64,000 bases of DNA from Nitrospirota bacterium (lineage in GTDB: Bacteria; Nitrospirota; UBA9217): assembly GCA_963741205.1 (NCBI GenBank), contig CAVUHW010000020.1, positions 192,001 through 256,000 of the forward strand. The letters are read 5' to 3'. The stretch's first letter is position 1. Each line of letters begins with the position of its first letter. The translations under genes and the position numbers were made by a program. The notes beneath the pieces are model-generated. The model had not been told where the DNA came from, made no database searches, and saw only the letters and a list, made by a program, of their open reading frames with translations. Of this stretch, positions 20,456 through 56,580 are shown one piece after another.

Positions 20456-20615
20456 ACTGAATTATAACCGTTCAATCTCTGAGGGGTATGATGCCGGTCA
20501 TATGCCCATTGCCCGGAAGAACCGCAGTCAGTTACGAATTAAATTCGGATCAAACGGGTAAGCATAGGTTAAATAGATCTGTGGGTGCCGGCGGGATGTC
20601 TGGTATAATACGGGT

Positions 20616-20840: not shown

Positions 20841-20849
20841 CTTCAGCTT

Positions 20850-21482: not shown

Positions 21483-21513
21483 GCCATCCTCGCCGCCATG
21501 CCGGGCGCACCAT

Positions 21514-21543
21514 AAAAAAGGAGAGACCTTTGTCTCTCCTTTC
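21514..21543 (-). terminator. Rho-independent terminator after aor
   Basis: AAAGGAGAGAC-loop-GTCTCTCCTTT hairpin with a T run on the minus strand. Confidence 0.65.
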
Positions 21544-21563
21544 ATTTGCCATCTCTGCTTCCG

Positions 21564-23301: not shown

Positions 23302-23535
23302 GGTTGCCTCCCTCAAACTGAAATTAAGATCGTAAATCCCCCCGGTCTATGATTAATGAGCATGAGCATCATGACTTTTTTACATAGATATCATCATAGC
23401 ACAGAATGTATGGTTGTCAATCGATACATCGCCAACGCCTCTGAAAAACGGCATGTATCTCTTCGCCAATCATATTCAGATGGAAGTTGCAAAGCGAACT
23501 CCATCATCACGATCCTGCGCCACGCCGCAGCAGGC

Positions 23536-23569
23536 AAAAAAAACCCGCTCCGGCATGCCGGGGCGGGTT
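23536..23569 (-). terminator. Rho-independent terminator after the alcohol dehydrogenase gene
   Basis: AACCCGC(C/T)CCGGC...GCCGG(A/G)GCGGGTT hairpin with an 8-T tail on the minus strand. Confidence 0.7.
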
Positions 23570-23593
23570 AGCTGTCGCTCGCTGTATCCTTAT

Positions 23594-32972: not shown

Positions 32973-33874
32973 TTACTCTTCTCCCACTATCCCGATGTTC
33001 CTCAGCATCCGCTCGTCCTCCCGCCAGCCCTTCTTGACCTTGACGTAGAGCTTCAGAAAAACCTTGACGCCGAGAAGTTTCTCGGAGTCCATTCTGGCCA
33101 GGGTGCCGATCTTCTTCAGCATGGCCCCGCCCTTGCCGATCAGGATCCCTTTTTGCGATTCCCGTTCCACGTAGATCACCGCATGGATGCGCGTGATGTC
33201 GGGCTCTTCCTTCATTTCCTCGATCATGACGGCCGTGGAATAGGGGATCTCTTCCTTGGTGAGCTCAAAGATCTTCTCCCGCACGATCTCGCAAACAATG
33301 AACCGCTCGGGCTGGTCCGTGAGCTGGTCATCGGGAAAATATTTCGGCCCCTGCGGCAGCCGTTTGAGAATGGCCGGGACAAGGCCGCCGAGGTCGTTCT
33401 TGAGCGCGGATACGGGGATGATCTCGGCAAAGGGATAGAGTTTGCTGTACTGCTGGATGAGCGGCAGGAGCGCATCTTTCTTGATGAGGTCGACCTTGTT
33501 GATGAGAAGAAAGACCGGCGTCTTCACCTTGGCAAGGGTCTCGATGATGAACCGGTCCCCTCCCCCGGGGGCCTCCGTGGCCTCGACGAGCATGAGGATC
33601 ACATCCACCTCGTTGTACGTCCGGAGCGCGGTCTTGCACCATGAACTCGTTCATCTTGTGCATGGGTTTATGGATGCCCGGCGTGTCCATGAACACCAGC
33701 TGCGCGCCCGGCTGCGTTCACGATGCCGAGGATCTTGTTCCGCGTGGTCTGGGGCTTGTCCGAGATGATGGCGATCTTCTCGCCCAGAAGCGCGTTCAGG
33801 AGCGTGGATTTGCCGACGTTCGGCCTGCCGATGATGGAGATGAAGCCTGACTTGAAGTTGTTTTCTTCTGACAT
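32973..33874 (-). CDS. era: GTPase Era (apparent indels near 33630-33720)
   Basis: [23 protein letters not shown], and a KH domain with REKIF and KGILIGKGG. Confidence 0.95.
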
Positions 33875-34033
33875 GGGAGACAGGATACCCGAAATGAGGG
33901 CCGCGCGCAACTGAAAAGCCGGAAGCGGGGGCCCCTTGGCCGGACTATGACCGTGCACCCGGAAGACCGCTTGTTCGCCGAAACGTCGATCGGGCTGCAA
34001 CACGCGAAAAGCTTACCTCGGATCAATTTCCAT

Positions 34034-41917: not shown

Positions 41918-43920
41918 ATGAAATTTTTCAAAAAATCAGAAGACGACCACCGGGATGCCCTCATAGAAGAACTGCGCCAGAAGATATCGTCGGCGCTGAT
42001 GCCGGATGCCGTCCTGAAGATCGCCGAACAGGAACTGGACGTCATTTCGCGAAGATCAGCCCCTCGTCCGCCGAATACACCATCGGCATCACCTACCTTG
42101 ATTATCTCCTGTCTCTTCCCTGGAACAGGAAAACGGAAGACAATCTCGATCTTGCGCGCGCGGAACGGATCATGAACGAAGAACCATTACGGCCTGGACA
42201 AGATTAAGGAGCGGGTGCTGGAACACCTGGCCGTCAAGGTGCTCATGATGAGCAAAAAAGCGCGCATTCTGATCGTCGATGACGAGGAGATCGCCCGCAA
42301 AAACCTCGCCCACGTGCTCACAAAAGAAGAATACGACGTGGTCACGGCCGCTGACGGCGAGAGTGCGCTCAAGGCAACTGGAGGCTGAGGAGTTCGACGT
42401 GGTGCTCACGGATCTTCGCATGGGCAGGATCGACGGGATGGACCTTCTGGACCGTATCAAGGTCCGCGTTTCCGGAGACCCGGGTCATCATGGTGACGGG
42501 CTTCGCCACGGTCCCGTCAGCCATCGAGGCCATGCAGAAGGGCGCCTTCCATTACATCGCAAAGCCTTTCAAGCTGGACGAGGTGCGGGCGGCGATCAAA
42601 CTGGCGCTGGAGAAAAAGACGATCAGGGCGAACACGAAAGGCTCGGTCCTCTGTTTCGCCGGCCCCCCGGGGACGGGAAAGACATCCCTGGGCCGGTCTA
42701 TTGCCCGCGCCCTCGGCCGCAAGTTCACGCGCATCAGCCTGGGCGGCCTCAAGGACGAGGCGGACATCCGCGGACACCGGCGCACCTACGTGGGGGCTAA
42801 ACCCGGCAGGGTGATCGAGGAGATCCGCCGCGTGGAATCGGCCAATCCCGTGATCATGCTCGACGAGTTGGACAAGATCGGCCGGGACTTCAAAGGTGAC
42901 CCCGAGTCGGCCCTGCTCGAGGTGCTCGACCCGGAGCAAAACTGCGCCTTCGTGGACCATTATCTGGACGCCCCCTTCGACCTGTCGAGCGTTATGTTCA
43001 TCCTCACCGCGAACATGCTCGATACGGTCCCCGCCCCGCTCCGCGACCGCATGGAGGTCATCGAGTTCTCCGGCTACACCCAGGAGGAAAAGTCGCATAT
43101 CGCGAGCCGGTTCCTCTGCCCAAAACAGGTCCGGGAGAAGGGGCTGTCCCCCGACGATGTCTCCTTCACCGACGAAGCCATCACAAAGATCATCCAGGAA
43201 TACACGCGCGAGGCAGGGATAAGGAACCTCGAACGGAAGATCGCGACCATCTGCCGCAAAATAGCGAAGGAGTCCGTCGAAAGCCGGGGCGCGCCGCAGC
43301 CGGTCCGGATTACCCCGGAAGCCGTGGAGCGCTATCTCGGCAGGCGCAGGTACCACTTCGACGTCATCGAGGAACAGGACCGGGTCGGCGTGGCCACGGG
43401 CCTCGTACGCACCGAAACCGGCGGCGAGATCATCTTCGTCGAGGCCGCGAAAATGAAAGGCACGAAGGAACTGATCATCACCGGATCACTCGGCGACGTC
43501 ATGCGCGAATCGGCGCAGGCGGCGCTGTCCTACATCCGGAGCAACTCCGGCGAGTTCGGCATCGCGGACGATTTTTTTGAATACCACGATATCCACATCC
43601 ATGTGCCCTCGGGCGCGATCCAGAAGGACGGCCCTTCGGCGGGCGTCACTATTCTCGTCGCCCTTGCCTCTCTCCTGACCCGCCGGCCGGCCCGGCGCGA
43701 CATAGCCATGACCGGCGAAATCACCCTCACCGGACGGATACTCCCTGTGGGAGGCATCCGCGAAAAGGTGCTTGCCGCGAAACGCGCGATGGTCAGGACC
43801 ATGATTGTGCCCCTGCGCAACCGCGACGACGTGGAGGAACTGACCGACGACGTGAAGGCCGGCATCGAAATCCGACTCGCCGACACCGTCAAGGATGTCG
43901 TGAGCGCGGTGCTGATGTAA
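41918..43920 (+). CDS. lon: Lon (S16) protease lacking the N-terminal domain, with a receiver domain inserted in the AAA+ module (about 4 indels in the 5' third)
   Basis: [27 protein letters not shown], then REC, then [47 protein letters not shown] (Ser) and GGIREK (Lys). Confidence 0.9.
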
Positions 43921-43927
43921 GATACGG

Positions 43928-44017
43928 AAGCAGTTGCAGGCGCATAGTTCAGCGCACAGGTAGTAAAACCATGCCAGCGTGACTAACTCTGCTACACTGC
44001 TACTTGCTACTTGCTTT
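43928..44017. repeat. Degenerate heptamer-periodic element (TTGCTAC units)
   Basis: CTGCTAC-A-CTGCTAC-TTGCTAC-TTGCTTT with a loosely complementary GCAG/GTAG-rich left arm. Confidence 0.5.
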
Positions 44018-44027
44018 AAGTATAACC

Positions 44028-45608
44028 ATGTTCAACTACCAGCCCAGCATACGACAGAAGATCACCCTCGGCTACTACGCGATCGTCGCGATGATTATCG
44101 GCCTGACCATGTTCACCTTCCTCGAACTGCGCTTCATCGAACAGAAGATCATCTTCGGCGAGACCATCTCGGAATTTTTCGACACGACCCTTGAGCTCCG
44201 TCGCTTCGAGAAGAACTTTTTTCTGTATGAAGAGCGATCGGACTACGACGAGAACATAAATTATATTAACAAGGCGCAAGACATCATCGATCGCAACGTC
44301 CGCGGGTTCAGCACACTCGCCTCGTCCGGGCAAATCTCCCTGCTCCAGGTCAGCCTCAAGAACTACCGGAATCTTATGGAGCTTTATGCGGTAACGGACG
44401 AACGCTACGCTGCCCGCAGGAACATTCTGGCAGGGAAAATACGGCTGGCCGGCAAGGACATCATCGCCATAGCGGAAGAGATCTCGAAGACCGAGCGCAA
44501 AAGCCTGCAGCAGCTCCTGAGCAGCTCCCAGCGCATTCTCATCATCTCCATCGTCATCCTTTCCGTCTCCGTTATCAGCATCGGTCAGATACTCTCGCGC
44601 ATGGTGGTGAGGCCGCTGAAGTCCCTGGAAGAAAGCATGGGGGTCATCGCGGAGGGAAAGTTCGAGCGCGTGGCCATCGATTCGAAGGACCGGGAGATCG
44701 TCTCGCTCACCAAGGCCTTCAATAAGATGCTGAAGCAACTGGAGCTGCATGAGCGGCACCTGATCCAGTCGGAGAAGCTCGCTTCCCTGGGCACGCTGCT
44801 CTCCGGCGTAGCGCACGAGTTGAACAACCCCCTCTCGAACATATCCTCCTCGAACCAGATATTGATGGAGGAGCTCAAAGAGGGCCTGGGGTCCGGGATC
44901 GCGGGCCGGGATAAAGCGGCAAGCGCGGAGGAGAGCGCGGCAGGGATCGCCCCCGACCTTCGTTTCTCGTCTCTCGACCCTGAGTTCATCCTGGAGCTGA
45001 GCAGCCAGATCAACGACCAGACCGACCGCGCGCGTAACATCGTCCGCTCGCTCCTGGATTTTTCACGGGACCGTGAGTTTAAAAAGGAGCGGGTGTCCCT
45101 CCGGAAGATCATCGAAGAGACGATTCAATTCGTCAAGGGCCAGGTGCCGACAAATGTCGCGGTCACGCTCGCCGTTCCCGACGACATCGTCATTGTCGCC
45201 GACAAGCAGCGCATGCAACAGGTTTTTCTGAACCTGATCAAAAACGCCATAGAGGCAATCACGTCAAACGTGGGATTGGTCTCGATCAAGGCGGAGAAAC
45301 GGCGGGCGATGGACGACTTCGACGACGAAAAGATCGGCATCTCCAACTACCTCAAGTACCGCGGCAAATGCACCCTCGATCAGGACACCGTCGACATAGA
45401 AATCCGGGACAACGGATCCGGCATCCCCCTCGACCTCGTCCCCAAGGTATTCGACCCCTTTTTCACGACCAAGGACGTCGGCAAGGGCTCCGGGCTCGGA
45501 CTCTTCATCGTCCACGAGATCATCGAGGAGCATGACGGCTGCATTGCCGTGGACAGCGAGCCGGGAAAAGGAACGGCGTTCCTGATCCGGCTGCCGCGTA
45601 AGGAGTAA
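44028..45608 (+). CDS. Sensor histidine kinase (TM-periplasmic-TM-HAMP-HisKA-HATPase)
   Basis: SEKLASLGTLLSGVAHELNNPL, NLIKNA, DNGSGI, FFTTK and GSGLGL. Confidence 0.95.
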   Translation: MFNYQPSIRQKITLGYYAIVAMIIGLTMFTFLELRFIEQKIIFGETISEFFDTTLELRRFEKNFFLYEERSDYDENINYINKAQDIIDRNVRGFSTLASSGQISLLQVSLKNYRNLMELYAVTDERYAARRNILAGKIRLAGKDIIAIAEEISKTERKSLQQLLSSSQRILIISIVILSVSVISIGQILSRMVVRPLKSLEESMGVIAEGKFERVAIDSKDREIVSLTKAFNKMLKQLELHERHLIQSEKLASLGTLLSGVAHELNNPLSNISSSNQILMEELKEGLGSGIAGRDKAASAEESAAGIAPDLRFSSLDPEFILELSSQINDQTDRARNIVRSLLDFSRDREFKKERVSLRKIIEETIQFVKGQVPTNVAVTLAVPDDIVIVADKQRMQQVFLNLIKNAIEAITSNVGLVSIKAEKRRAMDDFDDEKIGISNYLKYRGKCTLDQDTVDIEIRDNGSGIPLDLVPKVFDPFFTTKDVGKGSGLGLFIVHEIIEEHDGCIAVDSEPGKGTAFLIRLPRKE

Positions 45609-45615
45609 TCTATTC

Positions 45616-46977
45616 ATGCAAGAAACCGCAAAGCTACTCATTGTCGATGACGAACGGATCGCGCTCCGGAACCTCGAGCATGTGATGAAAAAAGAAGGCT
45701 ACGAAGTGACCGGCACGCAGAGCGGGCCGAACGCCCTCAAGCTCCTCGAAGATCAGCAATTCGATGTGGTTCTTACCGACCTCCGCATGGAAAAGGTCGA
45801 CGGCATGCAGATCCTCAGGAAAACCCGCGAGCTCTACCCGGACACGGAAGTGATCATGATTACCGGATATGCGACCCTCGATTCGGCGGTTGAGTCGATG
45901 AAACACGGCGCATTCTACTATATCGCGAAACCCTTCAAACTCGAGGAAGTGCGCAAGGTCGTTCAGGAGGCTTTGCATAAGGTCCGTCTCAAGATGGAGA
46001 ACCGCCACCTCCGGGAGCAGCTCGACAGCTACCAGGGCAAGGTCAAGATCATTACTCAGGACCCGTCCATGCAGAAACTCCTCGAGACAGCCCGGCAGAT
46101 CGCGCCCACGGACTGCAATGTACTTATCACCGGCGAGAGCGGCACGGGCAAGGAGCTCTTCGCCCGGTTCATTCACCTGAACAGCAATCGCGCAACCGGC
46201 CCCTTTTTCGCCATCAACTGCGGCGCCTTTACCGAGGAACTCCTGTCGAACGAGCTTTTCGGCCACGAAAAGGGCGCTTTTACCGGGGCGAACAATATGA
46301 AGAAAGGCCTGATCGAGATGGCGTCGGGGGGCACGCTGTTCATGGATGAGGTCACGGAGATGCCGTCGTCCATGCAGGTAAAGCTCCTCCGGGTCATCCA
46401 GGAAAAGGAGGTCCTTCGCGTCGGCGGCACCGAGCCGACCAAGGTGGACGTGCGGCTCGTCGCTGCCACGAACCGGGACATTCACGATTCCATGAAGACC
46501 GGCTCTTTCCGGCAGGACCTCTACTTCCGCCTGAACGTCGTCTCGCTCCGCATCCCGCCCCTCGCGGAACGGAGGGACGACATTCCCCTCCTCTCCTACT
46601 ATTTTCTGAAGAAATACTCCGTGCTCATGAAAAAAGAGGTCAAGGAGATCGCCGAAGATGTGATCGCCCTGCTCATGAACTATGACTTTCCGGGAAACGT
46701 GCGCGAACTCGAGAACATCATGGAGCGCGGGGTGGCGCTCTCGAACGGCCAGATCATCGAGACGGGCCATCTGCCCGAGGACCTGCGGGAGCTCAGCATC
46801 AAGACTTTTCGTAAAAAGGAGGGCAAGATCCCGTCTCTCGATGAGCAGGAAGAGTCCTATATCAAGTGGGTTCTCGCCGAGGTGGGCGGCAACAAGACCC
46901 TCGCCTCGCAGATCCTCGGCATCGACCGCGTCTCGCTGTGGCGAAAACTCAAGAAGTACGGGCTTGAAGCGGAATAG
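45616..46977 (+). CDS. NtrC-family sigma54-dependent response regulator
   Basis: REC, GESGTGKE, ELFGHEKGAFTGA, FRQDLYFRL, FPGNVREL and a Fis-type HTH. Confidence 0.95.
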   Translation: MQETAKLLIVDDERIALRNLEHVMKKEGYEVTGTQSGPNALKLLEDQQFDVVLTDLRMEKVDGMQILRKTRELYPDTEVIMITGYATLDSAVESMKHGAFYYIAKPFKLEEVRKVVQEALHKVRLKMENRHLREQLDSYQGKVKIITQDPSMQKLLETARQIAPTDCNVLITGESGTGKELFARFIHLNSNRATGPFFAINCGAFTEELLSNELFGHEKGAFTGANNMKKGLIEMASGGTLFMDEVTEMPSSMQVKLLRVIQEKEVLRVGGTEPTKVDVRLVAATNRDIHDSMKTGSFRQDLYFRLNVVSLRIPPLAERRDDIPLLSYYFLKKYSVLMKKEVKEIAEDVIALLMNYDFPGNVRELENIMERGVALSNGQIIETGHLPEDLRELSIKTFRKKEGKIPSLDEQEESYIKWVLAEVGGNKTLASQILGIDRVSLWRKLKKYGLEAE

Positions 46978-47039
46978 CGATCTTGAAGGAAATCTCTTGC
47001 GGAACCGGCAAATAAGATTTATAGTGCCGGGGTCATGAA

Positions 47040-47130
47040 CTCTGGAGTGAGCGCAGCGAGCGAATACGATAATATTTCAAACCCCAAGAGTCGAAGCTTC
47101 CCCGAAGCTTGCTCAGGGGAAGTTTCAATT
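47040..47130. repeat. Palindromic REP/MITE-like intergenic element
   Basis: CTTCCCCGAAGCTTGCTCAGGGGAAG hairpin plus GAGCGCAGCGAGCGAA; single copy in this window. Confidence 0.35.
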
Positions 47131-47135
47131 TCAGC

Positions 47136-47330
47136 ATGAAATCCGATAAAATCATCCTGATCGCCGGCGTCGTCCTGCTCGCGGCCTTGGCGTTCAAGTC
47201 GCTGAAGCAGATGATCTTTTTATCGTTCACCCTGCTTTCGCTGAAAATAGTCTGGGTGCTTCTCGTCGTTCTGTATATTCTGACGGTACTAAAAAAACGC
47301 ACGCGTTCATCGCGTGATGTGAAAAAATAA
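47136..47330 (+). CDS. Small membrane protein
   Basis: 64 aa hydrophobic ORF immediately upstream of tatA. Confidence 0.45.
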   Translation: MKSDKIILIAGVVLLAALAFKSLKQMIFLSFTLLSLKIVWVLLVVLYILTVLKKRTRSSRDVKK

Positions 47331-47355
47331 CATTCTTGAGCGGAGGAACAGTAAA

Positions 47356-47547
47356 ATGGGTAGAGGTCTCTTTCAACCGATGCATCTGATTCTTATCCTC
47401 GTGATCGTCCTGATCATCTTCGGTCCGGGAAAACTCCCCCAGCTTGGCGAAAGTCTCGGGAAAAGCATCAGGGGCTTCAAGAAGGCCATGTCCGAGAAAG
47501 ATGATGAGCAGGTAATTGCAGCGAAGAAGGAAGAGAAAAAACCGTAG
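47356..47547 (+). CDS. tatA: Twin-arginine translocase TatA/E subunit (second copy)
   Basis: [28 protein letters not shown]; GGAGGA RBS. Confidence 0.9.
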   Translation: MGRGLFQPMHLILILVIVLIIFGPGKLPQLGESLGKSIRGFKKAMSEKDDEQVIAAKKEEKKP

Positions 47548-47995
47548 ATACTTGTCACCCGAACCGCGATACCCCATAGTCGCTATTCGAGAGGACCTTT
47601 TTTTACCGTCATCCCTGGCTTGCAAGCCTGCCGCTCGTATGCTGTCTTCAACGCTAATAACCGCCCCCCTTGCGGATGCCGCTGCAGTCAAGCCTCCTGT
47701 AGACGAACAATGAATACCGTACATCTCTCGACCCATGATTTATTTCTAAACCCCTTCTATTTTTTTTCTATCACCGCCTTTTCCGCCGAATCACGCAGAA
47801 TAAATAATTTTCAATAAAAAAATGATTACTAGGGAATTATAGTCTAAAAAATTGGCTATAATTAGCAGAAAGTGCTTCGGGGAAGACAAGTGGCGGTCAA
47901 ATTTAATATTTTTTTTGGTAATAACCATTTTTCTAGCTAATACGAGCTACGTGAAAAAAGGGCTTCTAGATCGCTCTTTGTTCAGGGGACGTGCC

Positions 47996-48733
47996 ATGAT
48001 CGTAAAGGTAGCTATGCTTTCGGCTACCATAGCCATGTTCCTTTCTTTTCATTCATTCTCCTTTGCCTATGAAACCCGAGAGGTCAAAGACGGCGGGAGC
48101 ATCGAAGGAGTGGTTGAGTATTCGGGGGCGACCATCCCGAAGGACCCTACGATGACGTTAACTTCCGAGACAGCGTACTGCGGCAAGAGCCTGCCCGCGG
48201 AAAGATATCTGATCAAGGACCGGAAAGTCAAGAATGCGGTTGTCTATTTGGTCAGGATCGAAGCGGGTAAAAAGGTCCCCAACGAGCCGGTCATCATAAC
48301 GAATACAAAATGTAAATTTGAACCCCACGTTTCCGTTGGGTTCAAGGGTAATCTTTTCACAGCAAAAAACGATGATCCGGTTCTGCACCAATTCGATATT
48401 CATGCCGCGATAGGCGGCGCTGAAATCTATAGTGTAAGTCTTCATGAACAAGGGTCCTCGGTGACAAAGACCCTCCCGAAGACCGGCCTTATGGAACTGA
48501 GTTGTTATGTCCATCCGTGGCAGCGCGCATATGTCTACATTTTCGACCATCCCTATGCAACGGTCACCGACGAAAATGGCTCGTTTGTCATGAAAGAAGT
48601 CCCGCCTGGAACATACACGGTCGCGGTCTGGCACGAATCACTTGGAATCAATGAAATCAGGGATGTCAAAGTGGAAAGCTTGAAGGCCAGCATCATCAGA
48701 CTAAAATACACCCATGAAGTAAAACTTCAATAA
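47996..48733 (+). CDS. Secreted cupredoxin-like / carboxypeptidase-regulatory-like domain protein, paralog 1
   Basis: Signal peptide, GSIEGVV, KCKFEPHV, NDDPVLH, CYVHPWQ and VPPGTYTVAVWHE. Confidence 0.75.
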   Translation: MIVKVAMLSATIAMFLSFHSFSFAYETREVKDGGSIEGVVEYSGATIPKDPTMTLTSETAYCGKSLPAERYLIKDRKVKNAVVYLVRIEAGKKVPNEPVIITNTKCKFEPHVSVGFKGNLFTAKNDDPVLHQFDIHAAIGGAEIYSVSLHEQGSSVTKTLPKTGLMELSCYVHPWQRAYVYIFDHPYATVTDENGSFVMKEVPPGTYTVAVWHESLGINEIRDVKVESLKASIIRLKYTHEVKLQ

Positions 48734-48748
48734 GAAGGAGGGTCCGAG

Positions 48749-49463
48749 ATGAAGAGGATGATCGTTGCAGCAGGTATTCTTGTCGATATTGTTTTCCTTT
48801 TCCCCGGCTGCTTTCGCCTATGAGACGATTGAAGTAAAAAACGGCGGAAGCATCGAGGGGGTGGTGGAGTACACGGGAGCCACGGTACCGAAAGACCAGA
48901 TGGTTAAGCTCAGTTCCGAGACCAAGTACTGCGGCCAGAGCATGCCGGCTGAAAAGTACCTTATCAAGGACAAGAAAATCAAGAACGTGGTTGTATATAT
49001 AGAAGAGATCAAGGCCGGCAAGGCGGTCCCAGCCGAGCCCGTTACGCTTACGAACCTGAAATGCGCCTTCGAGCCGCATGTTGCCGTGGGATTCAAGGGA
49101 AGCAAGTTCATCGAGCGCAACGACGACCCGATATTCCATAACATCCATACGTATATCAACGGGAAGACCATGTATAACATCGGACTTCCCGAAAAAGGTT
49201 CATCGGTCACAAAGCCCCTGACCAAGGCGGGAATCATCGAAGTGACCTGCGACAGCCACCCCTGGATGCACGGCTATCTCTACGTGTCTGAGAACCCCTA
49301 TGCCGCGGTCACGAACGATACGGGCGAGTTTTCGCTCAAAGATGTCCCCCCGGGCACCTATACCGTCGAGGCCTGGCATGAGGCGCTCGGCAAAACAAAA
49401 ATAACAAGCGTCAAGGTGGAAAGCGGCAAGGCAAGCAAGGTAACGCTGGAGTATAAGAAGTAA
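48749..49463 (+). CDS. Secreted cupredoxin-like / carboxypeptidase-regulatory-like domain protein, paralog 2 (indel in the signal peptide)
   Basis: AAGGAGG RBS before ATG 48749; KCAFEPHV, NDDPIFHNIH, CDSHPWM and VPPGTYTVEAWHE. Confidence 0.75.
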
Positions 49464-49486
49464 TATTTCATCACGAGGAGGATAAC

Positions 49487-50797
49487 ATGAAAAAGGCATT
49501 ATTGCTCGTAGTGGTACTGATTGTCTCCATTATGGTGATGTCGACTGATTCTCAAGCCGTTCCATCCTTTGCGCGTCAGGTTCAGAAGCCCTGCACTGCC
49601 TGCCATACGATATGGCCGAATCTGAACCAGGCCGGAAGGCAGTTCAAGGTAAAGGCCTATACGGACGTGAGCGAAAAGTGGGACATGATCAACAAGGACA
49701 ACATGAATTTAGCGACGGTCTTTCCGTTTTCAGCGAGGGTAATATTTTTCCCGGAGGTACATGAATCAGGCAACCCCGAAGCTGCATCACAGAGTTCAAC
49801 CTCTCTGGATCAAGTCGCGCTTGTTCATCGCAAGCCGGGTCTATGACTATGCGGGCGTGTTCGCGAGTGCCGAGTTTTCTCCCGATGATAACAGCTTCGG
49901 ACTGCCCACGGTCAAATTGGCCTTTCAATATCCCCTCGGAGAGGGCAACACGGTAGGTCTGGTCGTCTTCAAGGGGCTTGCTTCCGGTGCAGATCCCTTC
50001 AACGCCTTGGGCGGCAGAGACCGCTCGCTGAGCTGGGGGGATGAGAGCAGGCCGTTGATCCTCACGTCGGGTTGGACATTTAACTTTTCCAGCGAAGGAA
50101 ACGTCGGTACCGTGGCCCACGGGTACTTCTTCGGCAACCGCCTCTACGCCGCAGTCGGAGGGCTGAGAGGCGGACTTTCTGCCGACGCGGAGACGCCGGG
50201 AAGCGGAGCCCTTGTCAATACGACGGCTAATATCTCTGACACGGATCCCTATGACCTGATCGCCCGCATCGCCTGGGACCAGAAACTGCCCAATGGAGCA
50301 GTCACCGTGGGGGTCGCCTACTACGGCGGCACGCAGCGTATCATAGCCACCCCCACTACAGCAAGCCTCATTTTTCCATATGATGCCAAGGTCAAAAGGA
50401 ACTACGTCGATGTGTCGCTGGAGCAGAATATCGGCGAGGATCATCTCATCGAGGTTCAGGCCTTGTACGGAATCGGCCAAGAAGAAAATGTCTTCGGCGG
50501 GAATGAGACAAGAAAGTTCGACGGTCTGTACCTCGAGGCCAGCTATTTCTATGACAGAAAGGTGGGTCTCGTCCTCGCAACGAACAATATCAAGTTCAAG
50601 GACGTCGATGCAGACCGACCGTGACCGGGCATCAGGACAAAATTGATTCGTGGCTTGCCTCCGTCAATTTCCTGCCGTGGCTCAACACGAAGTTTGCCAT
50701 CCAATACGTCAATACCAAGACGACCTTCGTGGACTCCGATGTCGAGCCGGACGTGACCGACAAGATCACCAGGGTCGTCCTGGACATGTTGTTTTAG
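49487..50797 (+). CDS. Cyc2-like fused monoheme cytochrome c / outer-membrane porin (indels near 49820 and 50615)
   Basis: Signal peptide, then AVPSFARQVQKPCTACHTIWPNLNQAGRQFKVKAY matching the Cyc2 AxPxFAR..CxxCH..PxL..GxxF signature; amphipathic beta-strands; ends ...VVLDMLF; about 435 aa. Confidence 0.8.
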
Positions 50798-50805
50798 GTC
50801 GCGAA

Positions 50806-50843
50806 ATCCCCCGGGGACGAGGCTGCCCCCGGGGGATGGTTTT
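50806..50843 (+). terminator. Intra-operon hairpin (terminator or mRNA stabiliser) after the cyc2-like gene
   Basis: ATCCCCCGGGG...CCCCGGGGGAT-GGTTTT. Confidence 0.6.
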
Positions 50844-50866
50844 CCCAAACAAGCGGGAGGTTCGGA

Positions 50867-52615
50867 ATGGGTGAAGCCGGCGTGGGAAAAGGCATACTCA
50901 AGGGCGTCGTAAAGTTCACCGCAATACTCGGCGCCGGCTTTTTACTCCTGTTTGTTCTCAAAAAAATGCTGGCCCTGCCGACGCCGGACGGCTACCGGTT
51001 TTTCCCCGTTATCGGCAGCAGGGACTGGATCTGGATCGTCGCCCAACTGCATCTCAATTTTGCCGCTTTTGTCCTCGGGGTCCCTATCTTTGCCGTGACC
51101 ATGGAGTACCTCGGGTGGAAAAAACGGGAGGCGAGGCTCGACCGGATCGCTTATGATTTCACGAAGCTCTTCACGCTTGCTTATACCGTGACGGCGGTCA
51201 TGGGGTCGATCTTCCTCGTCAGCCTGCCGCTGCTTTACCCCACATTCATCGATTACATGATGAAAGTACTCGGCCCCACCTGGTGGTTGTATCTCGTCGT
51301 GATGTACGGCGAAGTGTTCGTCTGCTATTATTATTTTTATTCCTGGCACAAGCTCGCGAACCGGAAGGGCTTCCACGTCGCGCTGGGCGTGTTGTTAAAC
51401 GTCCTTGGGGCCATGCTGCTTTTGATTACCAGTGCATGGGTCGGGTTCATGACCACGCCGGCCGGCGTCAGCGCGGAAGGTGAACTGATGAGCCGGTGGG
51501 GCGCCATCCATACCCATATGTGGATCCCGCTGTTCCTGCACCGGTTCGTGGCCAATATCGTTTTCGGTGCCGGCATCGCCGCAGCCTATGCGGCGTTTCG
51601 GTTCATTACCGCGAAAACGGATGAAGAAAGGGCCTACTATGACTGGATGGGCTACAGCTCCGCGATCATATCGATAGGGGTTTCCCTGCTTCTTCCGGGC
51701 GTCGGCTATCTCCTCGGCGTCGAGATCTATTCCTTCAACGAACAGATGGGCATCCAGCTCATGGGCGGATTTTTTGCCTGGCTGTGGGTCATGCAGGCGA
51801 TCCTGATCGGTGCAATCCTGTTCTTCATCAACTACTACCTCTGGATATCCCTCCATAAAATGCCGGGCGGGGACCGATACTTCAAGTATGTAAAGTTCAT
51901 CTTCATCGTCCTTCTTCTCGGCTATGCGGTCTGGCTGACCCCCCATGATATCTCGTTAAGCCTCGAAGAGGCAAGACGAACGGGCACGTATCATCCTGCA
52001 TTGGGAAAACTCGGCGTGATGGCGGCCAAAAACACCGCCGTCATACTCTCCTATCTCGCCACGTTTTTGAGCTTTGCGATATTCCGGATGAGCAATAAGG
52101 AACCGACCGTATCGTGGGCAAAAACGGGAAACACGATCAGGGCGCTTCTCATCGTTGTCTCTTCCGCGGGTGTCCTCATCCTCGGCGTACTCAGTTATTC
52201 CGTTTCAGCCGCAGTAAGGGTCAAGGTGCTTTCCCCTATCCAGTTCGGTCTTTTCTTTTTCTCCCTTATCGCGCTCTATGTACTGGACAATTACATGTAT
52301 AAGGGGGCCCGGATCATCGGCGAACCCCAATGGGGCAGGATGCCCGAACGCTCGCAGTACGCCCTCATCGCCATTACGGTGACCTTCACCTGGCTCATGG
52401 GGATGCTCGGCTACATGAGGGCAGGCGCCCGGCAATACTGGCACGTATACGGAATCATGAAGAACACGAGTCCGGACGCCTATCTGCCGACCCACGGCTA
52501 CGCATCGATCGTGGTCACGATCGTCACGCTGCTGTTCTTCGTCCTCGTCTCCCTGGTCTTCTGGAGCATCATGAAACTTGAGAAGTTCGCCGGGGAAAGA
52601 AGGGAAAAATCATGA
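50867..52615 (+). CDS. Cytochrome bd-like oxidase subunit I (CydA-like, Nitrospira/anammox type; no cydB)
   Basis: Many TM helices; AQLHLNFAAFVLGVP and PLFLHRFVAN heme histidines; GYMRAGARQYW in place of GRQPW. Confidence 0.8.
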   Translation: MGEAGVGKGILKGVVKFTAILGAGFLLLFVLKKMLALPTPDGYRFFPVIGSRDWIWIVAQLHLNFAAFVLGVPIFAVTMEYLGWKKREARLDRIAYDFTKLFTLAYTVTAVMGSIFLVSLPLLYPTFIDYMMKVLGPTWWLYLVVMYGEVFVCYYYFYSWHKLANRKGFHVALGVLLNVLGAMLLLITSAWVGFMTTPAGVSAEGELMSRWGAIHTHMWIPLFLHRFVANIVFGAGIAAAYAAFRFITAKTDEERAYYDWMGYSSAIISIGVSLLLPGVGYLLGVEIYSFNEQMGIQLMGGFFAWLWVMQAILIGAILFFINYYLWISLHKMPGGDRYFKYVKFIFIVLLLGYAVWLTPHDISLSLEEARRTGTYHPALGKLGVMAAKNTAVILSYLATFLSFAIFRMSNKEPTVSWAKTGNTIRALLIVVSSAGVLILGVLSYSVSAAVRVKVLSPIQFGLFFFSLIALYVLDNYMYKGARIIGEPQWGRMPERSQYALIAITVTFTWLMGMLGYMRAGARQYWHVYGIMKNTSPDAYLPTHGYASIVVTIVTLLFFVLVSLVFWSIMKLEKFAGERREKS

Positions 52616-53127
52616 GGCAGGGCGTCCTCAAACTTGCGGCCATCGTGATCGGACTGAATCTGATTTTTCTCTATATCGGTCTGGAATTTTTACCCCAATC
52701 CGAATCCCGGCCCCCCAAGGTAATCAAGATAGAGGAAGGCATCTCCCCGGAGGACCTGGTCCGGGTCGGCGAAGAGATCGTCTTCGGAAAAGGCCAGTGC
52801 ATGGTGTGCCATCCCGCCAAAGCGGAATCGGGAATGAGGGCGCCGGCAATGGCCACCATAGGCGCGGACATGGAAAAGGAAGCAAAAACGAGAGGAATAA
52901 CCGTGGAAGAGCATGTCTTTGAGGCCCTGGTCAACCCGTCCAAATACGTCGTGAAAGGCTTCGAAGACATCATGTCGCCGGTGCACACTCCCCCGTCCTC
53001 GTTGACCGACGGCGAGATCATTGCAGTCGCGGCTTATCTGCAGAGTAACGGCGGGAAGGCGACGGTTTCCTATCCCGGGTCGGTGCCGATCTTAAGGGAC
53101 CAGATACAAAAGGCGGGAAGGAAATAA
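52612..53127 (+). CDS. Membrane-anchored monoheme cytochrome c
   Basis: N-terminal TM helix, CMVCH, distal Met (IMSP); ATGA overlap. Confidence 0.85.
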   Translation: MRQGVLKLAAIVIGLNLIFLYIGLEFLPQSESRPPKVIKIEEGISPEDLVRVGEEIVFGKGQCMVCHPAKAESGMRAPAMATIGADMEKEAKTRGITVEEHVFEALVNPSKYVVKGFEDIMSPVHTPPSSLTDGEIIAVAAYLQSNGGKATVSYPGSVPILRDQIQKAGRK

Positions 53128-53128
53128 G

Positions 53129-53932
53129 ATGCAATTCATATTTCCAGTCATCACGATCATCGGCCTTGCAATCGCCGTCATCTCCAGCCTGAAGAAATCC
53201 CCCTTCTTCAATTTTATCGGCATCCTCCTCGCCGTTTACGGCGGGCTCAAGAGCCTGGCCTTCATCATGCCTCCCCTCCCCGGCCAGGTCGTCGTCATGT
53301 TCATGATCATGTCCTTCTTTGCATTCCTCATCTATTTCTCCATCCAGGACGATACGCTGAAAGCCTTTCTCGAACCCATGAGAGCGGTACTCGCGGACGA
53401 TGACAAAAAAATCCTGCGTATGGCCATCGTGTACGTCCTGATCCCCTTGCTGGCCGCCTACCTCACCTACGCCTGGGTCAAGCCTGCCTTCGAACCACCG
53501 ATATCCGCGAGGATCACGCATCCGGAGCCGCCGTCGGAAATCGAGCTCAAGGGGAACACGATCAGGATACTCGGACTGGAAAATCCCTTGCGCAAGGACA
53601 CGGCAAACCTTGCAAAGAATACGACGGAAGGAAAAGACCTCTATTATCAGAACTGCTTCTTCTGCCACGGCGACGACCTCGACGGGAAAGGGAACTTCGC
53701 CCAGGCCTTCAATCCCGTCCCGCCCCCGTTCCGGGGCACTGACACGATCGCCCAACTGCCCGAGTCCTACGTGTTCTGGAGAATAGCAAAAGGATGGAGG
53801 GGGCTACCCGCGGGCGCTCATCCCTGGGACTCCGCCATGCCCGCATTCGAGGACTTTCTGACGGAAGAACAGATGTGGAAGGTGATCCTCTTTATTTATG
53901 ACGCAACCGGGAACAAACCAAGGACGTGGTAA
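53129..53932 (+). CDS. Multi-TM monoheme cytochrome c
   Basis: Four hydrophobic segments, CFFCH, WDSAMPAF. Confidence 0.85.
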   Translation: MQFIFPVITIIGLAIAVISSLKKSPFFNFIGILLAVYGGLKSLAFIMPPLPGQVVVMFMIMSFFAFLIYFSIQDDTLKAFLEPMRAVLADDDKKILRMAIVYVLIPLLAAYLTYAWVKPAFEPPISARITHPEPPSEIELKGNTIRILGLENPLRKDTANLAKNTTEGKDLYYQNCFFCHGDDLDGKGNFAQAFNPVPPPFRGTDTIAQLPESYVFWRIAKGWRGLPAGAHPWDSAMPAFEDFLTEEQMWKVILFIYDATGNKPRTW

Positions 53933-53956
53933 TAAATAGCGGTAACTGCTAAGGTT

Positions 53957-54079
53957 GTCATTCCCGCGAAAGCGGGAATCCAATGGCTTTTCCAGGGATA
54001 AATTCAAAATGGATTCCCGATAGAATCATTCCGCACTCGCGCTCCGGCGCTCGTAGACGCTGGGTGCAGGGGGAATGAC
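53957..54079. repeat. REP-like palindromic element
   Basis: GTCATTCCCGCGAAAGCGGGAATCCA ... TGGATTCCCG ... GGGAATGAC. Confidence 0.7.
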
Positions 54080-54151
54080 GACAGTTCGGTTGAGGTCGTG
54101 GCAGGCATTCACATACCTGAGCAGTTACAAGTAATGAAGGGAAACATCGTC

Positions 54152-55585
54152 ATGAATTTGTTCATAACCGTCATAATACTGATGCTGCTGCCCGCCTCCG
54201 CGCATCCCCAGGAGAAAGGGAAGGCCCTTTATGACCAGTGGTGCAGCCAGTGCCACGGCGAAAAAGGCGACGGCAAGGGCCCTGCCGCGGACTTCGTGTT
54301 GCCGAAGCCGAGGGATTTTACGAAAGGCACTTACAAATTTCACTCTACCGCTTCGGGCGAGCCGCCGCTGGATTCAGACATCATCCGGTCGATCAGAAAC
54401 GGAAATCCCGGCACATCCATGCCGCCGTGGAAACGGTTCAGCGACGACGACGTGAAGGCAATGCTCGATTATCTGAAAAAGTTTTCGCCCCCTGATACTT
54501 TTGAAACAAAGGGCACCGCCACGAAGATCAAAGCGCCGTCAACAAGCAAGGAGAAACTGATCGCTCAGGGGAAAGAGCTGTACGATAAGATAAAATGCTG
54601 GGAATGCCACGGCAAGGCGGGGCGGGGGGACGGTGAAAAAGGGTGGCAGGAAAAATTCAAGGACGATTGGGGCAATAAGGCCTATCCTGCTGATCAGACC
54701 CACCCATGGGAATACCGGAACGGCTCCGAGGTTAACGATATATTCGTGACTATTTCGGCCGGCATAGAGGGCACGCCCATGACCTCCTACGGAGACACGG
54801 TGCCGGAGGACAAGAGATGGGCGCTCGCCTATTACGTAAAGTCACAGCAACAGACGAGAAACCTCGGTCTTGCCTTGCGGGTGAAAAAAACGGAGACCAT
54901 CCCCTCTTCGACCGATGATCCCGTCTGGCAGAGCGTCGACTACCTCGATCTGCCGATGGCCGGACAGGTGATCTTCGAGCCCCGCGACTTTACCACACTG
55001 ATAACGAACGCGCGGGTGCGGGGAGTCTATACCGGTTCGGATTTGGCGATCATGGTTGAATGGACAGGGAAAAAGCATAATATCGGCGACGACGGCAATC
55101 CTCCCGATGCCGCCCGCATTCAGTTTCCCACGAAAGCTTCGGAAGGCGCCCTGCCGTACTTTTTCATGGGAGACAGGAAACTCGGCGTCAATCTCTGGCA
55201 GTGGAAGGCGTCGGACAATCTGGGTGTCGAACTCATGGCGGGGGGCACGGAGAATGTTACGCAGCAGGAACAGCAGGACATGAAGGTCACAGCCTCCTAT
55301 ACGGATGGATTATACAGGGTCATGTTCAGGAGACCTCTGCAAACCGCAGACAAGAACGACACCGTGTTCGAGGCCGGAAAATTTACTCCCTTCTCGGTCA
55401 CCCTGTATGACGGCAGGAACGGAGAGGAGAACAAGAAGGGTGCGATCTCCGCGTGGTACTATCTGGTGCTGGAGCCTCCGACGCCGGCCACCGTCTATAT
55501 TCTACCGTTCGTTTCGTTTTCTGTGTTCCTGGTCCTCGGTTTGATGCTTCATAAGATCGTCAGAAAAAAAGGGCAAGCGAGGTAG
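54152..55585 (+). CDS. Diheme cytochrome c fused to an ethylbenzene-dehydrogenase gamma-like (EB_dh, heme b) domain with a C-terminal TM anchor
   Basis: CSQCH and CWECH; DAARIQFP...PYFFMGD...VNLWQWKA...YDGRNGE...AISAWY; terminal TM helix. Confidence 0.8.
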   Translation: MNLFITVIILMLLPASAHPQEKGKALYDQWCSQCHGEKGDGKGPAADFVLPKPRDFTKGTYKFHSTASGEPPLDSDIIRSIRNGNPGTSMPPWKRFSDDDVKAMLDYLKKFSPPDTFETKGTATKIKAPSTSKEKLIAQGKELYDKIKCWECHGKAGRGDGEKGWQEKFKDDWGNKAYPADQTHPWEYRNGSEVNDIFVTISAGIEGTPMTSYGDTVPEDKRWALAYYVKSQQQTRNLGLALRVKKTETIPSSTDDPVWQSVDYLDLPMAGQVIFEPRDFTTLITNARVRGVYTGSDLAIMVEWTGKKHNIGDDGNPPDAARIQFPTKASEGALPYFFMGDRKLGVNLWQWKASDNLGVELMAGGTENVTQQEQQDMKVTASYTDGLYRVMFRRPLQTADKNDTVFEAGKFTPFSVTLYDGRNGEENKKGAISAWYYLVLEPPTPATVYILPFVSFSVFLVLGLMLHKIVRKKGQAR

Positions 55586-55593
55586 ACGCCGGT

Positions 55594-56580
55594 ATGTACA
55601 AGAAAATATATATCCCGATAGACAACTCGAAATACTCGCGCTCCTGTACGCTGATCGGAACTGACCTGGCCGGGCAATTCGGCTCGGAACTTACCGGCAG
55701 CCACATCTACAGCGCCAACTTGCACGACAGGCGGTTCAAGGACATGGAAGTCGGGCTTCCCGGTCACTACCAGGAGGAAGAAAGACTGAAAAAATCGCGA
55801 AAGGTCCATGACTCCCTGATAGGAGACGGGCTCCGGCTGATCTCCGACGCCTATCTTGAATCATTCAAACAGGAGTGCCGAAATTCATCGATCCCGTTCA
55901 CGTGCAAGATGCTGGAGGGTAAGAACTGGCTGGAGCTGGTAAAGGACGTGCGGAGCAGCGGTTATGACCTCGTGATCATGGGGATCCTTGGCCTCGGCGC
56001 AAGCAACGGCAATCTCATCGGGAGCGTCTGCGAAAGGGTCGTTCGGAAAGTCTCCGCGGACGTCCTGGTGGTAAAAAACGACGCCCCGCTTGCCGGCAGG
56101 ATCGTCGCTGCGATCGACGGGAGCGAGCATTCCTATGCCGCCTTCAGGAAAGCGCTGCTCCTGAGCAAGCGGTTCAGTCTTGGACTCGAGGCCGTTTCCG
56201 CATACGACCCTTATTTCCACCGAAGGGCCTTCCAGGCTCTCGTCGGCGTCCTCTCAGACGAAACAGGAAAAATGTTCAAGTTCAAAGACCAGGAAAAACT
56301 GCATGACGAGATCATCGACGACGGCCTGGGCAAGATATACCGGGAGTACCTCGATCGAGCGGTCCGGATGGGGCATGACGAAAGCGTCGAGGTGAAAAGC
56401 GCTCTTCTTGCGGGAAAGGCCTACGAGGAAATAAAAAAGTATCTGGAAAAAGAACCGCCGTCTCTGCTGGTCGTGGGCCGCTTCGGCGCGCACAAAACCG
56501 ACGAACAGGACATTGGCAGCACCACCGAGAACCTTCTCCGCCTCGCTCCGTGCAACGTGCTCATCACCGGCAACCAGTAG
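55594..56580 (+). CDS. Tandem-domain universal stress protein
   Basis: YKKIYIPIDNS, DLVIMGILG, IGSVCERV, IVAAIDGS and IGSTTENLLRLAPC. Confidence 0.9.
   Translation: MYKKIYIPIDNSKYSRSCTLIGTDLAGQFGSELTGSHIYSANLHDRRFKDMEVGLPGHYQEEERLKKSRKVHDSLIGDGLRLISDAYLESFKQECRNSSIPFTCKMLEGKNWLELVKDVRSSGYDLVIMGILGLGASNGNLIGSVCERVVRKVSADVLVVKNDAPLAGRIVAAIDGSEHSYAAFRKALLLSKRFSLGLEAVSAYDPYFHRRAFQALVGVLSDETGKMFKFKDQEKLHDEIIDDGLGKIYREYLDRAVRMGHDESVEVKSALLAGKAYEEIKKYLEKEPPSLLVVGRFGAHKTDEQDIGSTTENLLRLAPCNVLITGNQ

Follow-up and report, generated by a model that had tools for sequence, protein, structure and literature searches.

A cluster of eight genes was analysed at positions 47996-56580 of a 64,000-nt stretch of contig CAVUHW010000020.1 from a Nitrospirota bacterium (the whole stretch is referred to as the window). 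The genes, all co-oriented on the + strand, encode two secreted cupredoxin-like proteins (cupA and cupB), a Cyc2-type fused cytochrome-porin, a CydA-like membrane protein, two membrane-bound monoheme cytochromes c (cytc1 and cytc2), a diheme cytochrome c fused to an EB_dh domain, and a tandem universal stress protein (USP). The cluster may constitute one electron-uptake chain from the outer to the inner membrane, leading from Fe(II) or Mn(II) to a terminal reductase of the OR-N type, a reading to which we give slightly better than an even chance. The identity of the parts, the conserved gene order and a predicted contact between the CydA-like protein and cytc2 come directly from the analysis below; that the parts work as one chain is what we infer from the gene order, and the donor, the acceptor and the direction of flow are proposed on the same kind of ground.

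Protein domains were assigned with Pfam and NCBIfam, transmembrane (TM) segments were predicted by Kyte-Doolittle hydropathy, and CXXCH heme-binding motifs were counted. The intergenic spacings are, in gene order, 15, 23, 69, −4, 1, about 200 and 8 nt. Family, hydropathy, CXXCH and fold evidence upheld the identity of every part of the eight-gene inventory given in a preliminary description of this DNA; what that inventory overlooked was a frame break in cupB, an insert within the cluster and a radical-SAM gene conserved at the related loci.

The third gene (49487..50797), which is read in three frame pieces, was identified as a Cyc2-type fused monoheme cytochrome c-porin from its motif, its CXXCH and a barrel model; no Pfam family matched it. 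The N-terminus is signal-like by a crude hydropathy criterion, with hydrophobic residues 4-22 and then SQA immediately before VP, and exactly one CXXCH (CTACH) is present, at residue 36. The diagnostic sequence of Cyc2 is given as AXPXFAR[Q/K][T/Y] before a single CXXCH, which is called unique to Cyc2, with PXL four residues after it (Keffer et al., PMC8406198). The corresponding sequence in the window, AVPSFARQV-QKP-CTACH-TIW-PNL, fits eight of the nine motif positions, with V in place of T/Y, and fits PXL. The Cyc2 signature noted in the preliminary description is thus present, with one deviation, together with the single heme motif.

As a proxy for the frame-broken window porin, a 437-aa metagenome homolog, P0002 (93% identical), was used for structure modelling. 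The AlphaFold2 (AF2) model of P0002, made with a 15-sequence alignment, reached a predicted local distance difference test score (pLDDT) of 67 and a predicted template modelling score (pTM) of 0.72, with 16 strands from residue 81 onward and a poorly modelled heme domain. Beta-barrel prediction, suggested along with the preliminary description, therefore gave a 16-strand barrel in the model of this homolog. Foldseek matched the model to 16-strand general porins (E 1e-10 to 1e-8), including OprO and OprP, both of which are named as structural relatives of Cyc2 (Keffer et al., PMC8406198). Structural matches to P0002 in the ESM Atlas were unnamed clusters of 410-460 aa from Pseudomonadota and Acidobacteriota; one match, named 'putative cytochrome c domain-containing', is compatible with Cyc2 and adds no name.

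The sequence family around the window porin included 112 members at E ≤1e-3 among 1730 candidates, most of them 400-470 aa long, and the few named members are Nitrospirota or Nitrospiraceae. A profile of 15 members detected 2200 cluster representatives at E ≤1e-3, 362 at ≤1e-10 and 20 at ≤1e-30. Among the best 150 profile matches, 123 were at least 365 aa long, and all of these (123/123) contain exactly one CXXCH; A.P.[FY]AR[QK] was found in 91 of these full-length relatives, the strict printed motif in 60 and PXL in 99. The subfamily of the window porin carries V, I or L at the position where the consensus has T or Y. Because of the motif, the single CXXCH, the barrel model and the profile relatives, the window porin is assigned, by sequence, to a distinct Nitrospirota subfamily inside the Cyc2-type family. 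A 'Nitrospirae UBA9159 protein' has been called a cluster-2-type Cyc2, and a Thermodesulfovibrionia Cyc2 expressed in E. coli oxidised Fe(II) (PMC13647500). One locus of our collection, L008, lies on a UBA9159 contig, and its porin, which shares 54% identity with P0002 over the best-matching tblastn segment, may correspond to the protein of that paper.

Two related genes precede the porin gene, cupA (47996..48733) and cupB (48749..49463), whose products are 57% identical and alignable. Pfam sees only the C-terminal beta-sandwich of either protein (CarboxypepD_reg/fn3_3, PF13620/PF14686), and the cupredoxin part, being invisible to Pfam, required a fold search. The AF2 model of cupB with a 16-sequence alignment reached pLDDT 88.4 and pTM 0.84 in one run, the other four models scoring 36-43. 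With the confident model, Foldseek against the PDB detected a NirK domain, amicyanin, pseudoazurin, plastocyanin, a Nitrosopumilus cupredoxin, the blue copper domain protein 5fc9 and AcoP (E 2.6e-7 to about 1e-5; template modelling score to the target 0.55-0.74), the match to the AcoP structure 7z3f of A. ferrooxidans having E 4.9e-6. A phmmer search of cupB against solved structures gave 5fc9 at only E 0.016, followed by amicyanins, and the first His and the C-x2-H region of cupB align with those of 5fc9. A 16-sequence cupredoxin alignment shows no variation at H125, C162 and H165 and almost none at M168, where cupA carries Gln. The Met type, C-x2-H-P-W-M, occurs in 19/19 copies adjacent to Cyc2 and in one further, distal copy in L010, and the Gln type, C-x2-H-P-W-Q, in the upstream copy of all five two-copy loci. 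The cupA product of the window, identified from its open reading frame (ORF), its Pfam C-terminus and its likeness to cupB, has the motif CYVHPWQ and a hydrophobic N-terminus. Since fold matches and a conserved ligand set agree, the designation of both proteins as cupredoxin-like, with putative type-1 copper sites and a conserved Gln/Met pair, is supported by sequence and model. The start of cupB was placed at ATG 48749, behind AAGGAGG, while the longest ORF opens at TTG 48765. In public records such proteins are named 'polysaccharide lyase family 4 domain II', 'carboxypeptidase regulatory-like' and, once, 'plastocyanin', a lesson for annotation in that cupredoxins invisible to Pfam carry misleading names.

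The CydA-like protein (50867..52615; 582 aa) was assigned to the cytochrome bd superfamily by PF01654 (Cyt_bd_oxida_I; E 7.5e-14, residues 57-285 only) and by its match to the Geobacillus CydA 5doq_A (E 1.6e-8, or 9.4e-12 with a 13-sequence profile). Residue H62 aligns with H21 of 5doq_A, the active-site heme His (His19 in E. coli), and is kept in all of 13 homologs. Of the two proton-channel glutamates (E99 and E107 in E. coli), the one at Geobacillus E108 has its counterpart in E149, and the other position is occupied by an invariant Tyr, Y142. Neither the Pfam match nor those to solved CydA structures extend past residues 247-288, and all stop short of the Q-loop, a missing alignment being weak evidence. 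Hydropathy indicated 13 segments, with a further aromatic-rich stretch at about 140-160 below the threshold; canonical CydA has nine TM helices. A scan of window ORFs gave no match to the CydB family PF02322, in agreement with the CydB-less state claimed in the preliminary description. Homologs of the CydA-like protein numbered at least 2395 at E ≤1e-3 among 8000 scored candidates, and the 120 matches listed are 66-93% identical and include Nitrospirota, Ca. Magnetobacterium casense, Magnetominusculus and Magnetomonas.

The OR-N family of bd-like proteins is described as lacking the quinol site, as common in Nitrospirota and as encoded in operons that hold alternative electron donors; OR-N1 and OR-N2 have 14 helices, and an OR-N2 operon often has no second cydA-like gene (Murali et al., bioRxiv 10.1101/2021.01.16.426971). 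The window protein, with its probable 13-14 helices and a presumably missing quinol site, fits this OR-N kind in sequence, and 'OR-N2-like' would be our guess from the single CydA gene in the cluster.

Downstream of the CydA-like gene, cytc1 (52612..53127) encodes a membrane-anchored cytochrome c of 171 aa with PF00034, one TM segment and one CXXCH, and is kept across the loci. The next gene, cytc2 (53129..53932), encodes a 267-aa cytochrome c with four TM segments, one CXXCH and PF13442 (E 8.9e-10). The diheme-c/EB_dh gene (54134..55585), in an ORF that opens at GTG 54098, encodes a periplasmic diheme cytochrome c fused to an EB_dh (heme b) domain; the protein, 483-495 aa long, has a signal-like N-terminus, two CXXCH and a C-terminal TM anchor. 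It matched PF00034/PF13442 twice and PF09459 at E 2.9e-19 (70.5 bits against a cutoff of 33.3), and TIGR03477 at E 1.1e-27 with 96.7 bits, below the cutoff of 169.85. In the PDB, the EB_dh part matched EbdC (2ivf_C, E 7.5e-10) and Kuenenia NxrC (7b04_C, E 1.4e-8). The diheme-c domain (54134-54850, residues 26-240) was strikingly close to 6h5l_B, a 'conserved hypothetical cytochrome protein' (E 5.6e-47), which we take to be from an anammox bacterium. No gene for a molybdopterin alpha subunit or an FeS beta subunit was detected in the cluster or the flanks scanned, as the preliminary description had stated for molybdoenzymes, and judged by sequence the EB_dh protein shares a domain with the type II dimethyl sulfoxide-reductase-type enzymes but is not a member of one. 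The last gene (55594..56580) encodes the tandem USP of 328 aa (PF00582, E 8.5e-33, in two stretches).

Complex prediction for the CydA-like protein with cytc2 gave a median interface score (ipSAE) of 0.76 over three runs, the highest-scoring of three controls reaching 0.00, with partner pLDDT of at least 80 and at least 76% contact agreement between runs. The mark applied to ipSAE was reached by 116 of 157 solved complexes and by 2 of 215 mismatched pairs, counts that apply here only approximately, since the prediction used our own alignments. The cytochrome cytc2 is thus predicted to pack against the CydA-like protein, the modelled interface involving residues 296-379 of the latter and residues 43-77 of cytc2.

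The same gene order was sought elsewhere by scanning species-representative genomes with the Cyc2-like alignment as query, which gave 24 loci, and neighbours were identified by tblastn of the window proteins. The loci L001-L019 carry close relatives of the porin, 41-67% identical in the best segment, on metagenome-assembled genomes (MAGs) of Nitrospirota/Thermodesulfovibrionales except for L009, while L020-L024 match the heme region only. In L009 the full cluster stands on a MAG labelled Thermodesulfobacteriota, which could reflect transfer or faulty binning. Sixteen of the 19 loci extend about 2 kb or more past the Cyc2 gene, L007, L015 and L019 being too short. The CydA-like gene lies directly after Cyc2 in 12 of these 16 assessable loci (L001-L006 and L009-L014), and Cyc2 stands without the CydA-like module in the other four (L008, L016, L017 and L018), where the neighbours are unrelated genes or multiheme cytochromes. 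In all 18 loci that extend upstream of Cyc2, a cupB-type gene directly precedes it. Eight loci (L003-L006, L009-L011 and L013) have the complete series as far as the USP gene, which follows the EB_dh gene, and L014 looks degraded. The recurrence of the same order in 12 other loci places the arrangement beyond chance, and the linkage of Cyc2 to the CydA-like module, raised in the preliminary description as possibly unique to this contig, is not confined to it.

The gap between cyc2 and the CydA-like gene, 69 nt in the window, is 18-120 nt in ten of the 12 linked loci measured. Pairwise identities of the Cyc2-like and CydA-like proteins from 10 loci were correlated (r 0.72, Mantel p about 0.002), as were those of the Cyc2-like and cupB proteins (r 0.82). 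The match lists of the Cyc2-like (111 compared) and CydA-like (117 compared) proteins have 22 contig sizes in common. Between L001 and L006 the CydA-like proteins are 95% identical and the Cyc2-like proteins only 62%, a contrast in sequence which hints that, in a cluster conserved in its other genes, the outer-membrane half may have been replaced or exchanged. Multiheme cytochromes c (Paired_CXXCH, Multi-haem_cyto) were observed near the cupredoxin-Cyc2 genes both with and without the oxidase module (L017 8650-11283; L018 2107-3465; L003 5939-8085; L005 6074-8248).

A ninth gene follows the USP gene in eight loci, encoding a radical-SAM/SPASM protein of about 423 aa with a C-terminal PCP_red domain (L003 16835-18103; L004 17531-18805; L005 16845-18119; L006 16866-18230; L009 16938-17984; L010 16881-18152; L011 17238-18569; L013 11163-12417); in L004 an extra CsgG-like gene lies between the two. 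The protein of these loci matched NirJ2 (E 1.1e-96) and the heme b synthase AhbD (E 3.3e-87), both below the curated cutoffs, and by this similarity it may supply or tailor heme for the complex. No copy of this AhbD/NirJ2-like gene was found anywhere in the window. A radical-SAM gene at 19166-20455 on the − strand was considered as a displaced copy and rejected, its product being 30% identical to that of the loci and matching the maturase family TIGR04311 at E 3.6e-180. After the USP gene the window contains ORFs without a family, except for a weak integrase-like rve match (E 0.12); a search for a transposase in this region gave no PHROGs match, and only the rve hit.

The window copy of the cluster is interrupted by frame breaks. 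Three tblastn segments of P0002 cover the porin gene: residues 1-113 at 49487-49822 in frame +2 (88% identity), residues 113-380 at 49821-50621 in frame +3 (93%) and residues 381-437 at 50624-50794 in frame +2 (98%). All 437 homolog residues are therefore covered across the breaks near 49820 and 50622, the longest single ORF being 287 aa, and cupB is broken near 48779. Altogether seven breaks were located in five genes, namely cupB, cyc2 (two), era, the gene for an iron-containing alcohol dehydrogenase (Fe-ADH; two) and a gene for a receiver-Lon fusion. Four breaks fall at CTTG on the + strand (48779, 49820, 33633 and 24491), and the others lie at about 50610-50625, 24600-24620 and 42460-42470. 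The essential gene era is split on the − strand into 33668-34003 and 32976-33650, and the receiver-Lon gene is split near 42465. CTTG occurs 294 times in the 64 kb, starting at 0.46% of positions. Because four of the seven breaks are at CTTG and the essential era is also broken, the breaks in cupB and cyc2 most probably stem from faulty assembly rather than gene decay, and the pattern in the sequence suggests that the assembly has introduced indels systematically and on one strand.

Between cytc2 and the diheme-c/EB_dh gene lies a structured insert of 187 nt (53942-54128), with 14-nt terminal inverted repeats that are 93% complementary and an RNA fold z of −4.8. The junction of these two genes measures about 5-80 nt in the six loci compared against about 200 nt in the window, the insert being present in the window only. 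A second copy of its 25-nt hairpin core (53957-53981) was not found in the window, and Rfam gave no match for the cluster or the insert at E up to 0.1. By its structure the insert looks like a miniature inverted-repeat transposable element (MITE).

Upstream of the cluster, and co-oriented with it, a histidine kinase and a sigma-54-dependent NtrC-type regulator are encoded at 44004-46977, followed by a TatA gene at 47356-47547 (PF02416, E 1.3e-19). The kinase/regulator pair is not kept beside the cluster in the other loci. Control of the cluster through sigma-54 by this pair was considered and rejected: no + strand TGGCAC-N5-TTGCW with up to 2 mismatches was found at 46977-47996, and the 22 matches to the consensus in the window are not above those in shuffled sequences. 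Genes for a histidine kinase and an NtrC-type regulator also stand behind a gene that carries the Cyc2 heme-region motif in three loci from alphaproteobacterial MAGs (L022 10880-13509; L023 10997-13443; L024 10951-13397); this regulator is 41-42% identical to that of the window, which may be generic family similarity. No + strand promoter-like site was detected in the gap that separates cyc2 from the CydA-like gene, and cyc2 has at its end a weak hairpin resembling a terminator (50769-50783). Terminator-like sites number 15 in the window and 11.7 in shuffled sequences, and promoter-like matches are likewise not above the shuffles. Farther away, the aldehyde ferredoxin oxidoreductase (AOR) mentioned in the preliminary description is encoded at 21567-23312 on the − strand. 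It lies between the TIGR04311 radical-SAM metalloenzyme maturase (19166-20455) and the broken Fe-ADH gene (23594-24514), and this − strand region (19166-24556) looks, from its gene families, like an anaerobe-type aldehyde/alcohol module.

On the reading of the cluster as one uptake chain, the Cyc2-type porin in the outer membrane would oxidise a soluble reductant, most likely Fe(II) and possibly Mn(II), and the electrons would be carried onward by the two periplasmic type-1-copper cupredoxins, one with Gln and one with Met as axial ligand. These would pass them to the membrane-anchored cytochromes c and the diheme-c/heme-b (EB_dh) subunit, which would sit on the 13-14-helix, presumably quinol-site-less CydA-like protein of OR-N type. 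The latter would be the terminal reductase that takes electrons from cytochrome c, its substrate being most likely O2 at low tension. For Nitrospirales, published work regards the bd-like oxidase as complex IV, the terminal oxidase fed by cytochrome c (PMC10579370; PMC12342949).

Several points weigh against this reading. The cupredoxin-Cyc2 pair occurs in four of the 16 assessable loci apart from the oxidase module, and the correlated identities of the two halves are also expected from shared ancestry alone. Matches to the CydA-like protein (at least 2395 among 8000 scored candidates) greatly outnumber the 112 to the porin, at different query lengths; with the four unlinked pairs, this indicates that the two halves are separable modules. 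By alignment, only one of the two canonical proton-channel glutamates of CydA is kept, with Y142 at the other position, and O2 reduction by any OR-N enzyme is unproven (PMC12342949). The fold model of cupB was confident in only one of five runs. Three frame breaks within 2 kb, together with the missing radical-SAM gene, may leave room for local decay. Anaerobe-type enzymes, AOR and Fe-ADH, are encoded in the same organism.

Another view is that two independent modules merely adjoin, namely the cupredoxin-Cyc2 pair as a mobile redox unit of periplasm and outer membrane, for example for iron sensing, detoxification or delivery to another acceptor, and the bd-like module as a general O2-scavenging cytochrome-c oxidase. 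This we judge unlikely. Cupredoxin-Cyc2 genes standing alone or beside multiheme cytochromes in L008, L016, L017 and L018 would be in agreement with it, as would the CydA-like proteins of magnetotactic Nitrospirota, 72-73% identical to that of the window, the suggested exchange between L001 and L006 and the weak hairpin at the end of cyc2. Terminator-like sites, however, are no more frequent than in shuffled sequences; the junction of cyc2 and the CydA-like gene is short, kept in 12 loci and devoid of a + strand promoter-like site, and no other obvious electron sink for the cupredoxins lies nearby in the module-bearing loci. That the outer half is decaying in this genome, cupB and cyc2 being pseudogenes, a mobile element having entered and the radical-SAM gene having been lost, appears quite improbable. 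The clustered breaks, the MITE-like insert, the absence from the whole window of a gene present in eight loci and the weak integrase-like ORF after the USP gene would fit such decay, but the porin remains encoded over all 437 homolog residues at 88-98% identity with no stops other than those caused by the shifts, breaks are found also in era, the receiver-Lon gene and the Fe-ADH gene, four of the seven breaks share CTTG on the + strand, and the five downstream genes are intact.

The chain might also be the same with a different inner end, the CydA-like protein reducing NO or nitrite, or driving electrons uphill to quinone at the expense of the proton-motive force, which would permit anaerobic growth on Fe(II). 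AOR and Fe-ADH in the window and Thermodesulfovibrionales MAGs as relatives give the host lineage an anaerobic look; the diheme-c domain is nearest to 6h5l_B and the EB_dh part resembles Kuenenia NxrC, and for the bd-like modules of anammox bacteria a role as quinone reductases has been proposed. The CydA-like protein has another residue in place of one canonical proton-channel Glu, and nitrate-linked Fe(II) oxidation has been discussed for Cyc2-bearing Thermodesulfovibrionia (PMC13647500). We nevertheless consider this rather unlikely: OR-N proteins are described as devoid of quinol-binding features and the CydA match of the window protein ends before the Q-loop, the His of the active-site heme does not vary among the homologs, genes for a nitrogen-oxide reductase or a molybdoenzyme were not found in the cluster or the scanned flanks, and cupredoxins with class I cytochromes c suit a high-potential acceptor. 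Outward flow, by which cell electrons would reach extracellular Fe(III) or Mn(IV), is very improbable. Porin-cytochromes of other systems can run in both directions and multiheme cytochromes adjoin some related loci (L003, L005, L017 and L018), but the cluster has probably no quinol-oxidising site and has no dehydrogenase, copper proteins of the cupA/cupB type are high-potential carriers, and the Cyc2 homologs assayed so far oxidise Fe(II) (PMC8406198; PMC13647500).

Four known systems resemble the cluster in part. The rus operon of Acidithiobacillus ferrooxidans consists of cyc2, cyc1, acoP, coxBACD and rus. Like it, the present cluster combines, in one orientation, an outer-membrane Cyc2, cupredoxins, cytochromes c and a putative terminal oxidase, and the cupB model matches AcoP. 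In contrast to the rus operon, the terminal enzyme would be the CydA-like OR-N protein with an EB_dh heme-b subunit instead of an aa3 heme-copper oxidase, the cupredoxins have an extra C-terminal beta-sandwich, and the host is a neutrophile-type Nitrospirota; no heme-copper oxidase (COX) family was detected in the nine cluster ORF pieces scanned. From its gene families the cluster is thus classified as an analogue of the rus-type operon and not a member, and 'rus-operon analogue with a different terminal enzyme', the phrase of the preliminary description, is a fair account of its architecture. The neutrophilic Cyc2 pathway of Zetaproteobacteria and Gallionellaceae shares the entry point, a fused monoheme cytochrome-porin with the Cyc2-specific motif; there the route continues through a periplasmic cytochrome c to cbb3, aa3 or bd-I, whereas here copper proteins would be the carriers and an OR-N bd-like enzyme the sink.

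The Nitrospirota bd-like oxidases, NIDE0901-like OR-N2 and TO_1 of Ca. Manganitrophus, are described as combining a quinol-site-less CydA-like protein of about 14 helices with cytochromes c and a periplasmic cytochrome b, and so resemble the module of the window, in which the quinol site is probably missing as well. They are thought to oxidise periplasmic carriers (PMC12342949; PMC10579370). Nitrospirales are said to pair OR-N2 with OR-N1 (PMC12342949), in contrast to the single CydA-like gene here, clustered with Cyc2 and cupredoxins. With the modules beside nitrite oxidoreductase in anammox bacteria and Nitrospina, the cluster shares an NxrC-related EB_dh domain and a diheme-c domain close to 6h5l_B; the bd-like proteins of Nitrospina have 13-15 TM helices and no quinol residues (PMC5029188). 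Unlike those modules, the cluster lacks molybdoenzyme alpha and beta subunits, an outer-membrane porin-cytochrome replacing the periplasmic dehydrogenase.

Each component falls into a known family, and a joint role of Cyc2 and a bd-like oxidase is a published hypothesis: Cyc2 and the bd-like 'TO_1' complex, with a periplasmic cytochrome b, were proposed for Mn(II) lithotrophy in Manganitrophaceae, the two being handled as separate loci in the available text (PMC9040806). The supplements of that paper hold no TO_1, bd-like or Cyc2 entry, the sole 'cyc2' match being the Pfam family Polyketide_cyc2. The operon itself was not found described in the literature searched, which leaves out most subscription papers and in which the Manganitrophaceae paper was the one work listed that mentions both Cyc2 and a bd-like oxidase, nor in the accessible portions of PMC10654088, PMC11033732, PMC7029218, PMC10367259 and PMC10732223. 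Judged by gene content, it would be an undescribed operon of Thermodesulfovibrionales-type Nitrospirota, with a cupredoxin pair, Cyc2, a single OR-N gene, three cytochromes, a USP and the AhbD/NirJ2-like protein. The novelty suggested in the preliminary description is to be qualified, in that OR-N enzymes with periplasmic donors, and Cyc2 with TO_1, had already been discussed as a lithotrophic pathway in Manganitrophaceae (PMC9040806).

Nitrospira and its relatives are presumed to rely mainly on OR-N bd-like proteins as terminal oxidases, a role that is only proposed (PMC12342949; PMC10579370). More tentatively than the single chain itself, it is possible that the cluster forms a self-contained and horizontally exchangeable chain from Fe(II) or Mn(II) through Cyc2 and the Gln/Met cupredoxins to an OR-N terminal oxidase, giving sulfate-reducer-like Thermodesulfovibrionia a cryptic micro-oxic, or NO-linked, metal lithotrophy. 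If so, this would be the first genetic context to name the donor side of an OR-N enzyme, and the AhbD/NirJ2-like radical-SAM gene would supply or tailor heme for the complex. The operon gives a concrete donor-to-acceptor scheme and a compact gene set for expression. Its presence further suggests a possible oxidation of iron, with a high-potential acceptor, by Thermodesulfovibrionia-type Nitrospirota, which are commonly taken for anaerobes that cycle sulfur and nitrogen, in agreement with the 2026 report of a functional Cyc2 in Thermodesulfovibrionia (PMC13647500).

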